From NCBI GenBank assembly GCA_951406725.2, contig OX597817.1, positions 145,142,001 through 145,206,000 of the forward strand: 64,000 nt of DNA, read 5' to 3'. Below are positions 6,851-64,000 of this stretch, one piece after another. A model generated the notes under the pieces. It searched no databases, was not told where the DNA came from, and saw only the letters and a list, made by a program, of their open reading frames with translations. Source of the stretch: Octopus vulgaris (Eukaryota). Each line of letters begins with the position of its first letter. Position 1 is the first letter of the stretch. The translations under genes were made by a program, and so were the position numbers.

Positions 6851-7154
6851 GTCCTTCCTTTAAGACATGGGAGCTGATCCAAAAGTAAGTTGGCTGCTAT
6901 TTCTAGGAAGTCAATTAACTGTATAGAAGCCCCCTTTATTAACTGAAGGATTTCTACTGTTAATCCACATATCAAATGGTATGCATTTGTGTATGAGAAA
7001 GAGAGTCCTTCCTTTAAGACATGGGAGCTGATTCAAGAGTAATTTGGCTGCTATTTCTAGGAAGTCAATTAACTGTATAGAAGCCCCTTTATTGACTGAA
7101 GGATTTTTACTGTTAATCCACATATCAAATGGTATGTATTTGCGTATGAGAAAG
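6851..7154. repeat. Tandem duplication, about 154-bp unit x2
   Basis: gtccttcctttaagacatgggagctgat...gtatgagaaag starts at 6851 and again at 7005, with few differences. Confidence 0.9.
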
Positions 7155-17439: not shown

Positions 17440-17768
17440 GGTCCTGTGCTGTTGGCATGTAAAAAGCATCATTCGAGCATGGTCGTTGCCAGTGCCGCCT
17501 GACTGGCTCCCGTGTTTGTGGCACATAAAAAGCACCATTCAAGCATGCTCGATGCCAATACCACCTGACTGGCCCTCATGCTGGTGGCACATAAAAAGTA
17601 CCCACTATACTCTTGGAGTGGTTGGCATTAGGAAGGGCATCCAGCTGTCGAATCATTGCCAGATCAGATTGGAGCCTGGCACAGCCTTCTGGCTTGCCAG
17701 CCCCCACTCAAACCGTCCAACCCATTCCAGCATCGAAAGCAGACGTTAAACGACAACGATGATGATAA
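17440..17768 (+). mobile_element. Retroposon family F with about 66-bp 5' tandem units and (GAT)n tail
   Basis: Tandem gtgctggtggcacgtaaaaagcacca-like units, then ggcattaggaagggcatccagctgt...gacgttaaacgac(gat)n. Copy at 32355 and many fragments elsewhere. Confidence 0.75.
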
Positions 17769-17801: not shown

Positions 17802-18350
17802 TACTTTGATACTTTGATACTTTGATAGGTTTCGGCCATTATTGGCCCAGGCCATGTCTAACTTAATAGCACCACCTGGTGAAGTCTTTCAAGTCAGAAT
17901 TTGGGCACTATGGCCCACTCAAGTAGAGAGTTATTGTTTACAGAGACATATCCGGGTGTAGGGGGTTTATCCGGGATTTCTTGAAGGAATCTGTCCAAAG
18001 ACTTCTTGAACCCTATAGGGTGAGTTTCTGTTTTAATGTGTTTTGGTGTAATGTTAAAGAGAGCGGGGCCAATTGAGGTGAAGTAATTGTGCCGTATTGT
18101 TGTTATGAGATGAGAGTGCGATTTTTGTTTTGGGCGGATGGCACGGGGCCCAAGCCTTGGATGTACCTTAAAGGTGATGCCAACATCATTTGGGCAATGC
18201 TGATGGAATATTTTCCACATCATGCAGATAATGTAGCGCTCACGACGACGTTGGAGAGAATAGAGTTTTAGCTTTTCTAGCCGACCCCAATAGTCGAGGC
18301 CTGTCATGCCATCTATCTTTTTTGTGATTGCCCTTTGAGGTGCTTCAACT
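17802..18350 (-). mobile_element. 5'-truncated CR1-group LINE (ORF2 C-terminus, 3' UTR, 8-bp tandem tail)
   Basis: Open frame [38 protein letters not shown]...GPALFN...FKKSLDRFL, typical of the CR1/L2 post-RT domain. Tail is (TCAAAGTA)3. Both flanks read tttatatgcatatata. Confidence 0.85.
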
Positions 18351-21145
<2,795 letters not shown>

Positions 21146-21832
21146 ATAATGTAAAAGCTTTGTGGAGATTTATTCTTGAAGTTTAAAATTTCTCTCATGA
21201 ATATAAATTCAGAACTTCTTTCTTTTTGATTTATTTATTTTCACTTTATTTTTATTCTTTTTCTCCTTAAGGAATAATGGTATGGAATGTTCTTTTAATG
21301 AGTTAACTTATTTATAGAATTTTCTTAGATTCTGATAGATCAGACCAGCAAAACCCAAAGAGCAATGAAGTTGAGAACAATAACTTTAAAAAAAAAAACA
21401 CCAGATATCTACAACTCATATTATATATATTTACTTTATATTACAATCGGTGAAAAATAGCATCAGTGATTACAAGTTTCCTACAAACCAATCATTGGTT
21501 TATTGCATTTTTGGAAGTGAGGTTAACAAGAGAATGTCTTAACTCAGGTACTGAACAAATATCACTAGGGACTTCGCTTGCAAAACACCTGTTTTAGGTT
21601 CATTAATGGGTGTTATACACAGTTTTGTATGATGTGGCTATATATTAGAAATAACAAGTGTTGTATTTTAAGATGGTGTGAACTCTTCCAGGTCAGTGAG
21701 TTTTTGTTTTGTTCTTTTTTAAATATTTTAATTTGATTTTTTATTGTTTTTTTTTCTCTTCTGTATTAATTGTTTGTCATTGAGTCAATATTTTCATTAT
21801 ATCTTATTACCCCTCAACAACAGTTCAGTGTG

Positions 21833-32342: not shown

Positions 32343-32354
32343 CTAGGGTCACAG

Positions 32355-32756
32355 ATTGGCTTTTGTACTGGTGGCACGTAAAAAGCACCATTCGAGTGTG
32401 ATCATTGCCAGCGTTGCCTTACCGGCACATGTGCTGGTGGCACATGGAAAACAACATTTGAGCGTGGTTGTTGCCAGTGCCGCTAGACTGGCTCCTGTGC
32501 AGGTAGCATGTAAAAAACACCTTTTGAGCGTGGTCGTTGCCAGGACTGCACTGACTGGCACTTGTGCTGGTGGCATGTAAAAGCACCCAGTACACTCTGA
32601 GTGGCTGGTGTTAAGAAGGGCATCTAGCTGTAGAAACTTTGCCAGATCAGATTGAGCCTGATGCAGCCTTCTGGCTCATCAGTCCTCAGTCAAATCGTCC
32701 AACCCATGCCAGCATGGAAAGCAGACATTAAACGACAATAATGATGATGATGATGA

Positions 32757-59280: not shown

Positions 59281-60192
59281 ACACAATGAGGTGGCAAGTT
59301 GGCAGAGTCGTTAGCACATCAGACCAAATGCTTAGCAATGGTACTTCCAGCTCTTTAGTTCTGAGTTCAAATCCTGCTGAGATCAACTTTGTCTTTCATT
59401 CTTTAAGGGTCGCTAAAATAAAATACTTGTCATGTACACGGGTTGATGTAACTGACTTGTCCCCTCCCTTCAAAAATTGCTGCCCTTGAGCCCTATTGCT
59501 GTGAAGGACCAGCACACCATTCAGAAGAAAATTGCAATCTCAGTCACTTACATACCATGGAAACTTGGTATCCAGCTTTATGGGTCCTTGAGCTGCACCC
59601 AGTGGCATTGATTCCAATCAACTGTATTCCTCCTCTATTATATTCTGGTCTTGTACCAACCATTGTTAATATATTCTTATTACCATTTTTTATGCATGAA
59701 TTACAAGCAAGATCAGTTCTGGGCTGAATTTTAACTTCCAATCAAATTCAATCTATTTATTAGATCATAATGTCATTGGAGAATGGCAAACATGCCATTC
59801 AATCCCATCATTCTCTCCTCTATAATTCTGTAGACTTTTGTCTTTTGTAAGAAACCATCATTATTAATCCTTTTGAATAAGTATCCCATTCATGTCATTC
59901 GATTCGACATGTTCTGTTTTCTGCTAATTGAATTAAGAGTCTAGTATCAGTTATTGGAATTTTTCTTCCTTTGTTTAATACTTATTGTTTTGGTGAATTC
60001 TTCAGGATCTTTTGAATGTCTGTTCCAATATTTAATTTGGAAAACCAACCGATACAACTTGTTGTGATAGTGGATTAAATTTTGTTGTTTTTCCTGAATT
60101 CCCATATAGAATTCCATTATTTTTCAAAGCTAACTTATATAGATATGGTTTCTGAGATGTACAACATACGTTATGTTCGTGCTAAATTACAT

Positions 60193-60599
60193 AGGCGCAG
60201 GAGTGGCTGTGTGGTAAGTAGCTTGTCTACCAACCATATGGTTCCGGGTTCAGTCCCACTGCATGGCACCTTGGGCAAGTATCTTCTACTATAACCTTGG
60301 GCCGACCAAAGCCTTGTGAGTGGATTTGGTAGACGGAAACTGAAAAAAGCCCGTCGTATATATGTATATATATATATATATATGCTTGTGTGTCTGTGTT
60401 TGTCCCCTAGCATTGCTTGACAACCGATGCTGGTGTGTTTACGTTCCCGTTACTTAGCGGTTCGGCAAAAGAGACTGATAGAATAAGTACTGGGCTTACA
60501 AAAGAATAAGTCCCAGGGTCGAGTTGCTCGATTAAAGGTGGTGCTCCAGCATGGCCGCAGTCAAATGACTGAAACAAGTAAAAGAGTAAAGAGTAAGAG
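60193..60599 (+). mobile_element. SINE family A, CpG-rich young copy
   Basis: aggcgcaggagtggctgtgtgg...ggccgcagtcaaatgactgaaacaagtaaaagagtaaagag. Confidence 0.9.
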
Positions 60600-61811
60600 T
60601 ATATGTATGTATATGTGTGTGTGTATATCATCATCATCGTTTAACATCCGCCTTCCATGCTGGCATGGGTTGCACATGTGTGTGTGTGTGTGTGTGTAGT
60701 ATTTTCTAAGTAGTTAAATAAACATTTATGAGTTCCATAGGTCCTGTAGTGTGGTTAATGGTTAGTAAGAATTAAAAATGGTAAATTTGTCGGATGCAGT
60801 TAGGCATGAGTTTGGAAATGGTTGTGTTACAATGTGTGAGTATCCAGAGATTTATATATTTCATCGTTTATATGCCTACATAATCACACACACACACTCA
60901 CTCACACACACACATACACACACACACACACACACTCACAAACACACACATGCACACTCACACACACACATACATATGTACGTATATAGCTTTCACGTCA
61001 AGAATTATGCAAACCAATTCAAAAACAAGACATATATGCATGCATAACATGCATGTATAACATGCATGCATATTTGTGTGCATATGTGTGCGTATGTGTG
61101 CATGCATGTGCATGATGCATATTTAAAGCTATTCAATTGCTTTGAAAGTCTGGTTTCAGTTATGTAGTTGTTTCTTTCTCTCTCTCTCTTTCTTTTTCCC
61201 TCACTCTCTTTCTCTCTCCCTCTCTCTCTCCTTCCCTCTCTCCCTTCCCCCTCTCTCTCTCTCTTCATATCATCCATCTCACCTGTATCCAGTGTTAAAA
61301 GCTTTGTATTAAAATAAAATATTTAAAAAATTCATGAAAAGGAAATAAACAAAACCAGAATAAATAAATAAATAAAAAGCACAAACAAACAAAACCTAGC
61401 CAAAACATTCTGCTAGACACATGTATTATGTGTATAGCTTTAATTTGGGGGGAAACATCTCCGAACATCTCCGCAGTAGATAGCAAATAAAGTGAAATGG
61501 CTTTTATTGATATCTTAGAATACTTTCCTGGGAATAGGATTTATTTACTCAAAGATTTACCATTAGAAAAACAAAAAGACAAAATAAAACCAGAAAAATA
61601 AACATAATAGCAAAATAATGTTTTTTGGTTCAGTTTTGCATGAATTTTTAACAATATTATTATTCCGTGTAAGTAGTTTGGTGCATTTTATCTTTTATCC
61701 TATACTTGTTGTACTTGATCTTTTATCCTATACGTAGTCAGTTATTGGACTATGGCCATTCTGGGGCACCACCTTGAAGAGTTTAGTAAAACAAATTGCT
61801 CCTCTTTACCC

Positions 61812-61981
61812 TCTTTTACTTGTTTCAGTCATTTGACTGTGGCCATGCTGGAGCACCACCTTTTAGTCGACTTATTCTTTGTAAGCCCAGTACTTATTCT
61901 ATCGGTCTCTTTTGCCAAACTGGTAAGTTACGGGGATATAAACACACCAGCATCGGTTGTCAAGCGATGGTGGGGAGACAA

Positions 61982-62056
<75 letters not shown>

Positions 62057-62218
62057 TACGATGGGCTTCTTTAAGTTTCTGTCTACTAAATCCACTCACA
62101 AGGCTTTGGTTGGCCTGAGGCTATAGTAGAAGACACTTGCCCAAGGTGCCACACAGTGGGACTGAACCCAGAACCATGTGGTTGGTAAGCAAGCTACTTA
62201 CCACACAGCCACACCTGT
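61812..62218 (-). mobile_element. SINE family A
   Basis: Full reverse-complement copy. Confidence 0.9.
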
Positions 62219-62718
62219 ACTTATTTTTATTTTATTTTATTTTATTTTTTTCAAGTTAGGTACAGATTCTATTGGTTTCTTCTGCCAAATCACTAAGTTA
62301 CAGAGAGGTAAACACCCCCAGCACCAGTTGTCAAATGTCTGGAGGACCAACACAAAGACAACCTGCATATACATATGTTATAAAGTGGTTGGCATTGGAA
62401 GGCTGCCCAGCCATAGGAACCATGCCGAAGTAGAGATTGGAGAATAGTGCACTTCTTGGATCCATGCCAACATGGAACATGGACATTAGATGATTATGAT
62501 ATTGATATACCATCATCATTGTCATCATCATTCGGTGCCTGCTTTCCATGCTTTGACTGAGATTGGTAAACTGGAGAGCTGCATCAAGTTCCAGTCTGAT
62601 TTGGCACGGTTTCTACAGCTCGATGCTCTTCCTAACACCAATATATACAGGGTGATTCAAAAGTCTCCATACATAGGAAAACAATTTATTTTTTTATAAG
62701 AAACAGTTTATAAGAACC

Positions 62719-63290
62719 CCTAGATCCCCTGATCTGACCCCTCTTGATTTCTATCTTTAGGGGCATTTGAAAGGCATGGTGTATCACGGAAAGATAAAAG
62801 ATATAAATCATTTGATGGAACGCATCACCAACTCAATTGCACACGTATCACCAGATGTGGTGTTATGAGTTCACAATGAATGGGGTAAACGTAGTGCAAT
62901 GTGTACTCAAAACAATGGTAACCATATAGAGCCTCATGAAGTATATTTGCCACTTAAATGTAACTAACCCTTAAGGGTTGATGCTACTGTAGCTTGTAGC
63001 CCCAGGAAGACGTCTCCTCCAGCTGGCTATTGACACACTTTCTATGCCCTATCAGTATTTGCAAAGGCTGGAGATGGGAAGGATAACATCCTTTTGCAAA
63101 TATTGATAGGGCACAGAAAGTGTGTCAATAGCCAGCTGGAGGAGACGTCTTCCTGGGGCTGCAAGCTGCAGTAGCATCGACCCTTAAGGGTTAGCCACAT
63201 TTAAGTGACAAATATACTTCACAATGTCAAGCAGCTACTGTTTATACCTCACTCGTGGATTTATTATTGCATATAGAGCCTGTTAAATAA
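62719..63290 (+). pseudogene. Tc1/mariner (DDxD-type) transposase C-terminal remnant
   Basis: PRSPDLTPLDFYL*GHLKGMVY...MCTQNNGNHIEP (62719-62934), resuming VK* after the insert (63282-63290). Two in-frame stops. Confidence 0.85.
62935..63269. mobile_element. Hairpin insertion with 12-bp TSD
   Basis: Arms 62937-63067 and 63090-63221; flanked by CATATAGAGCCT at 62923-62934 and 63270-63281. Confidence 0.85.
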
Positions 63291-64000
63291 AAAAAAAACT
63301 GTTTCTTATAAAAAAGATAAATTGTTCCTACATATGGCAACTTTTGAATCACCCTGTATATTGATATAAATATATGCACACACATACACGCATACACAGT
63401 GTGAGGGTGCATAGCTTGGTTGTTAGGCTGTTGCACTCACTGTCATGAGATCGTGGTTTCAATTCCTAGACAGGGTGATGCATTGTATTCTTCATCTTAT
63501 GTTGCTTTCCAGTCACTTTAACACTTGACACATGGTGGTCCTGTTGATTTGATGGAAAGATTAATCCAATGTGCGGCATGAGCATTTGATCACCACAAGC
63601 AAATCATCTGTCCAGGTTGTTCATCAAAAGCTGAACAGTCATACATTGTCTTTGACAGGAAAGTCCATCATATACACACACACACAACCATATATATATA
63701 CCCTCTTTATAATGTTGGCAAACGAAATAGAGATAAGAATGTGCATTGTCCGTTTGATTGGAAAATTTCTATAAGTGGCTGAAGATTGCTCGACATTTTA
63801 AAACTGATGTAAAACTTACAGTGTTTAATAAAATGAAGTAGCATGAAACGATCGTACCACATCACCTCAGATATACTTGTTGCTTATTTTGATTATACAT
63901 ATATATATATATATATGATAAGCTTCCACACAGTCTACCAGATTAACTCATAAGGTATTGGTTGAACTTGGTCTATAGTAGAAGAAGACACTTGCCCAAA

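Follow-up and report, generated by a model that had tools for sequence, protein, structure and literature searches.

Two head-to-head truncated copies of an abundant repeat in an octopus mariner element: a probable Penelope-type insertion

A 335-nt hairpin insert in an internally deleted Tc1/mariner element of Octopus vulgaris is best read (probability about 0.6) as two head-to-head, 5′-truncated copies of the terminal part of a single abundant repeat, left by a single Penelope-type insertion that was probably primed on two strands. A Penelope-type origin overall is very probable on the sequence features set out below, and the insert is most likely a footprint of a known and ordinary kind, not a new hairpin-RNA element. 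We analysed it within a window of 64,000 nt (the whole stretch of DNA studied), in which its layout and target site duplication (TSD) are directly visible:

62648–63356, plus strand: internally deleted Tc1/mariner, host of the insert (terminal inverted repeats (TIRs), TA flanks, transposase matches)
62648–62709, plus strand: left TIR of the mariner (sequence comparison)
62719–62934, plus strand: C-terminal remnant of the transposase, with two stops; the frame closes as VK* at 63282–63290
62923–62934, plus strand: left copy of the TSD (single copy in an empty mariner contig)
62935–62936, no strand: two-base spacer between TSD and inverted arm (no in-register match to the repeat family)
62937–63067, minus strand: inverted, tail-less, 5′-truncated copy of the family end (122/131 complementary to the right arm)
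63065–63067, plus strand: 3-nt microhomology AGG, in both the inverted arm and the native family sequence (contigs of all four runs diverge before 63065 and behind 63067)
63068–63090, plus strand: loop, family sequence of the tailed copy only (contig loose ends, read by eye)
63091–63221, plus strand: direct arm of the tailed copy (contigs and arm pairing)
63222–63269, plus strand: tail of 48 nt on one side only, consisting of family sequence and with a fixed end (contig ends behind 63250 in runs X1, X2 and X6)
63270–63281, plus strand: right copy of the TSD (exact duplicate; its first C may double as the last base of the family)
63296–63356, minus strand: right TIR of the mariner (sequence comparison)

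Exactly two copies of the 12-bp TSD, CATATAGAGCCT, lie in the window (62923 and 63270, 347 apart) and enclose 335 nt, as originally predicted; the chance of such a 12-mer pair is ~0.003 among ~120 × 120 position pairs. The arms, 62937–63067 and 63091–63221, form a gap-free duplex in which 122 of 131 positions pair, with nine differences and a longest perfect run of 46 bp, and both contain ACCCTTAAGGGT, the palindrome that had been claimed for each arm. The arm, loop and end layout of the original prediction holds, as do its roughly eight substitutions. The indel that it counted beside them is more plausibly another substitution, the ninth (63092), and the loop is 23 nt rather than 22, because the family is equally long at 63085–95. 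The hairpin has a folding energy of ~−244 kcal/mol on both strands (z ~−27), which is what any long inverted repeat would be expected to give. Stops are found in all six frames of the insert, and the 64-kb window holds no second copy of either arm or tail.

Contigs of four public DNA runs (X1, X2, X6 and X8, from three coded organisms) were aligned to positions 62610–63355, and bear on both the host element and the repeat. The host carries the hallmarks of Tc1/mariner elements, namely a DDE transposase, TIRs (89% alike over 66 columns) and a TA duplication (62646–47 and 63357–58), and is ~362 bp long without the insert. The frame that the insert splits between NHIEP and its closing two residues is real and corresponds to the end of a Tc1/mariner transposase: the remnant shares 44% identity over 72 aa with residues 283–354 of the 357-aa P0004. 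Five of six transposase candidates pass, at 41–46% identity (E 1e-6 to 7e-8), and three of these five match DDE_3 or PF16087; the 72-aa piece itself, scanned against Pfam and PDB, gave no relevant match. A joint skipping from 62934 to 63311 is present in three of the four runs (1, 2, 1 and 0 contigs), and one contig reads a single GAGCCT followed by GTTAA, an empty mariner site. Joints 62717/62931–34, found in every run with 2–6 contigs per row, would represent the frame end continuing directly into the right TIR. The comparison with empty mariner copies that had been proposed as a check thus finds the insert absent from contigs of the public runs and, in one of them, a single 12-mer site. The hairpin is not part of the transposon, as other mariner copies lack it, and the proposal that it is a retro-insertion into mariner, formed during integration, is supported by these empty copies. 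Mariner contigs also include TIR-to-TIR short forms with skips of 580–622 nt, which are MITE-like derivatives.

The contigs show directly that arms, loop and tail belong to one repeat family. Relative to the mariner body, the arms have a summed depth of 47×, 49×, 45× and 17× in the four runs, a depth ratio that is not a copy number. Upstream of 63065 the native sequence differs from the inverted arm (43, 33, 43 and 30 contigs in X1, X2, X6 and X8), while in the four runs 23–49 left-arm contigs run past 63067 into loop sequence in reverse complement. The family thus contains the loop, right arm and tail as an uninterrupted stretch, of which the left arm is a partial copy in inverted orientation; the AGG at 63065–67 is common to both. 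The hairpin is not the native form of the repeat, and the 48-nt end, which had been described as unique, is family sequence like the loop.

The outer end of the family is fixed. Behind 63250, contigs of X1, X2 and X6 (31, 36 and 25, respectively) share the ending ATTTATTATTGC, and beyond it part into AT-rich letters; the median loose end is 14–18 nt, hence the last letters are backed by fewer contigs. This common end in three runs replaces the variable (TTA)n, or simple-repeat LINE-type tail, of the original prediction. A second fixed end is marked by 25 contigs of X8, from another organism, that depart at 63222 into (AT)n, and the outer end of the inverted arm lies within ~2–4 nt of this point. 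The 48-nt one-sided tail thus lies between two fixed ends, the second of which is seen in at least one of the four runs, among the 24 of 1418 loose-end rows listed; the missing 63222 row for the other three runs is uninformative because of that same fraction. The 9-mer TATAC[T/C]TCA occurs twice, 30 nt apart, at 63213–63221 (the inner family end) and at 63243–63251 (in the tail), and could mark start sites of reverse transcriptase (RT).

At least 7–8 other head-to-head junctions, of which two are perhaps identical, are found in the contigs (four of 15 rows listed in one table and four of 12 in another; the tables hold 127 and 87 further rows). Four of them (of the 12 rows listed) have a depth of 59–67, like single contigs of the same run. 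In three of the junctions the tail-bearing arm appears to be the shorter, judging by side lengths; the contigs do not reach the outer ends of these other inverted copies. Several junction ends fall at 63086–63093, the base of a family stem-loop (63076–63092, read by eye as a 6-bp stem with a 5-nt loop), a clustering that is a weak hint because reference mismatches there can also clip alignments. The present-day loop letters fold in a register shifted from that of the family stem, and in 63079–63093 three departures from the family majority (63085, 63088 and 63092) move the stem-loop to a new 6-bp register, which could reflect either perfection by template switching or a trait of a subfamily. 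An opposite-strand joint, 63007/63154, was discarded as it has the same orientation in family coordinates.

The two arms share one parent. The paired variant 63146C/63012G is present on both, at no more than 0.3–1.1% of depth, and both arms therefore derive from a single RNA or parent locus. Polarised against family majorities (40 of 87 rows listed), five derived changes lie on the right arm and two to three on the left, with one unpolarised (63114/63044). They comprise two A>G changes (63161 and 63168), five C>T or G>A changes (63092, 63103, 63208, 62962 and 62963) and one likely case of CpG decay (62979). All nine arm differences are transitions, a pattern we reject as a signal, as other repeat pairs of the window are also mostly transitions (157 of 210 substitutions in ten pairs; p ~0.07). 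G-U wobbles number five on one strand and four on the other, showing no strand preference. An imprint of ADAR in the DNA is likewise rejected: only two derived changes are A>G, so the arm DNA carries no editing imprint. If transcribed, the hairpin would be a candidate substrate for Dicer or ADAR, as the original prediction suggested. The arms have diverged through ordinary mutation, by ~3.5% each, and an intact TSD is to be expected at this divergence (p 0.43).

An inverted, 5′-truncated copy with a tail on one side and a TSD of 8–10 bp is the layout published for Penelope-like elements (PLEs), as far as the available parts of the reports go (PMC3846280, PMC8557442); the remark in the original prediction that PLEs often make inverted terminal copies is correct and matches this layout. 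The octopus insert has the inverted, 5′-truncated head-to-head copy, and its 12-bp TSD lies in an AT-rich target with AT-rich flanks; from these features we infer that the family belongs to the PLEs. Among its closest likenesses are complex insertions of EN+ Penelope-like elements such as Pen2a_Av of Adineta vaga, with the same head-to-head truncated copy, one-sided tail, outer TSD and junction overlap (PMC3846280, PMC8557442), although the octopus insert consists of two stubs only, with neither an ORF nor a direct pLTR. Compared with the EN+ element values given there, the tail is 48 nt rather than 30–40, the TSD 12 bp rather than 8–10 and the overlap 3 nt rather than 15. Poseidon_Ac of the green anole is described as having two fixed ends that bound the tail, downstream of a hammerhead site, and AT-rich targets (PMC11167929, in part), much as here, where the hammerhead is a candidate, whereas its tail region is the start of an ORF and the octopus family has no visible open frame there. 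Recently active Penelope families are listed in an octopus in the part of PMC13282606 consulted. No RT or GIY-YIG frame was seen in the insert, with its stops in six frames, or in the 30 nt of the family visible upstream. Among 115 frames (114 selected or cut from stop-to-stop frames of the window, and the transposase piece) none matched Pfam at the curated cut-off, so the search gave neither a host exon nor a PLE protein.

In the preferred reading, a Penelope-type RT/endonuclease would nick both strands of AT-rich mariner DNA at a spacing of 12 nt. Primed by the end of the bottom strand, RNA would be copied from 63269, the outer start that takes in the tail, as far as 63065, while the top-strand end would copy from the inner start (~63221) and halt at 63091–93, the base of the small RNA stem-loop; the two cDNA ends would then anneal via AGG/CCT, followed by fill-in. 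In vitro, a PLE protein cuts and extends both strands and starts at two RNA sites bounding the tail, according to the available text of PMC11167929, and two-sided priming is therefore preferred to snap-back. That such stubs are a natural record of two cut strands priming independently at two fixed RNA sites, with RT stalling at the stem-loop (63086–63093) to set the hinge, is a bolder idea that we think rather doubtful.

Within the same Penelope-type family, the cDNA could alternatively have paired its 3′ CCT with the AGG across the 23-nt loop, copied itself and been cut or joined at the tail boundary. Such a snap-back agrees with the rare variant common to both arms and with the 3 nt of microhomology at the hairpin apex, and at the present locus, where the tailed arm is the longer one, this copy alone fits it equally well. 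Self-priming is, moreover, how Arkhipova 2013 accounts for PLE junctions of this type in the passages available (PMC3846280), and snap-back 5′ junctions have been observed with the R2 protein, an antisense cDNA copy being joined to the upstream target as here (PMC11371274); the part of that report consulted describes no second fixed end or one-sided tail. We consider this explanation possible but unlikely, and it is our second choice because the tail-less arm ends at the second family end, where copying would have to halt. Present-day minus-strand DNA also forms an inner stem of 6 bp in which the 3′ end takes no part, and for the three junctions whose tail appears to lie on the shorter arm a single snap-back would be insufficient unless both arms were tailed.

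An ordinary LINE or SINE 3′ end (e.g. RTE-tailed) that snapped back once at its 5′ junction would account for the 12-bp TSD, the ATT-rich end and the very high depth, and small-hairpin inverted duplications are known from the DNA flanking L1 sites (10.1101/2024.12.14.628481). It is nevertheless improbable, given a family end that is fixed rather than a variable simple repeat or poly(A), a candidate hammerhead half upstream, the second fixed end and the many inverted junctions. The original prediction had offered, as one of two options, a hairpin RNA transcribed and retroposed as a unit. The fold is very stable, and a few daughter copies would escape notice because contigs collapse inverted repeats; against this, family contigs leave the apex for non-inverted sequence (30–43 in each of the four runs), other junctions differ and no second copy lies in the window, which makes it highly improbable. 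The same low standing applies to a TIR MITE, a possibility raised in the original prediction, as the right arm stands 48 nt from the TSD, the repeats are therefore not terminal, and the family is natively non-inverted. Least probable is that the hairpin arose as an artefact of the assembly or library, or from a pair of unrelated insertions at the same site: no contig among those listed spans the insertion, but the nine arm differences, derived changes on both arms, shared rare variant and single enclosing TSD argue otherwise.

The 30 upstream letters of the family hold GAAA-C-UCGG-G-UC, a candidate hammerhead 3′ half, in loose ends of four out of four runs. It has a 2-bp helix III and a near-palindromic 4-nt loop, of the kind described for metazoan type I/PLE hammerheads in the portion of PMC4209133 consulted. 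Counting both strands, the strict motif occurs once in the window and a relaxed one 25 times. A ribozyme in this repeat family is a lead, not a result, because the other half, CUGANGA, would lie beyond the 30-nt contig view and the base before GAAA is A rather than the conserved C. The predicted cut is ~15 nt before the start of the present copy, which therefore lacks the ribozyme and is likely inert. Downstream, CTGGAGA followed by TGG (63068–63077) resembles the hammerhead C block and could pair with the CCA before the upstream GAAA; this CTGGAGA is non-canonical and differs between runs. A still bolder and equally doubtful idea is that the family may carry a ribozyme in non-type-I order, with CTGGAGA-TGG as a C-block variant downstream of the GAAA block (for permuted hammerheads compare PMC10085705, seen in part).

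The parent element may be either an autonomous PLE or a retrozyme. Animal non-LTR retrozymes are non-coding, hammerhead-linked, have larger TSDs and have been proposed to derive from PLEs, all of which are likenesses, with the hammerhead here a candidate, though their tandem units and whole ribozyme are not seen in this stub, going by the available text (PMC7229834, bioRxiv 10.64898/2026.07.22.740005). Five exact motifs of 12–15 nt had no match in a Naiad/Chlamys consensus set, in which line breaks may hide some, and three of four shorter ones matched once each, in records not alike by eye. None of 20 Rfam matches reached the gathering score, with only generic hairpin matches below it, and exact 22–24-nt patterns had no match in metagenome, viral or prokaryote contigs, as expected of an animal repeat. 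The family was not named in the literature searched, which covered papers rather than repeat libraries.

A single insert of this kind matters little, being one probably inert copy of a described layout, but its mariner host provides the empty site, which makes the case a clean one. Taken together, stubs like it could settle whether PLEs integrate by self-priming or by priming from two sides, a question held unresolved in the parts of the literature consulted, and they add long perfect duplexes to the genome. Another possible duplex in the window, if transcribed, is an inverted pair of SINE-like copies (60191–60586 and 61811–62224), ~1.2–1.6 kb apart and 89–98% complementary in blocks. Elsewhere, within 17894–21148, a 2.8-kb (AT)n array adjoins a 152-aa minus-strand frame with no Pfam match, presumably the end of a CR1/L2-type LINE, which it resembles. 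A 154-bp tandem pair (94%) lies at 6851–7154, and two arrays, at 17447–17602 and 32350–32582, have a related-looking 66-bp unit.
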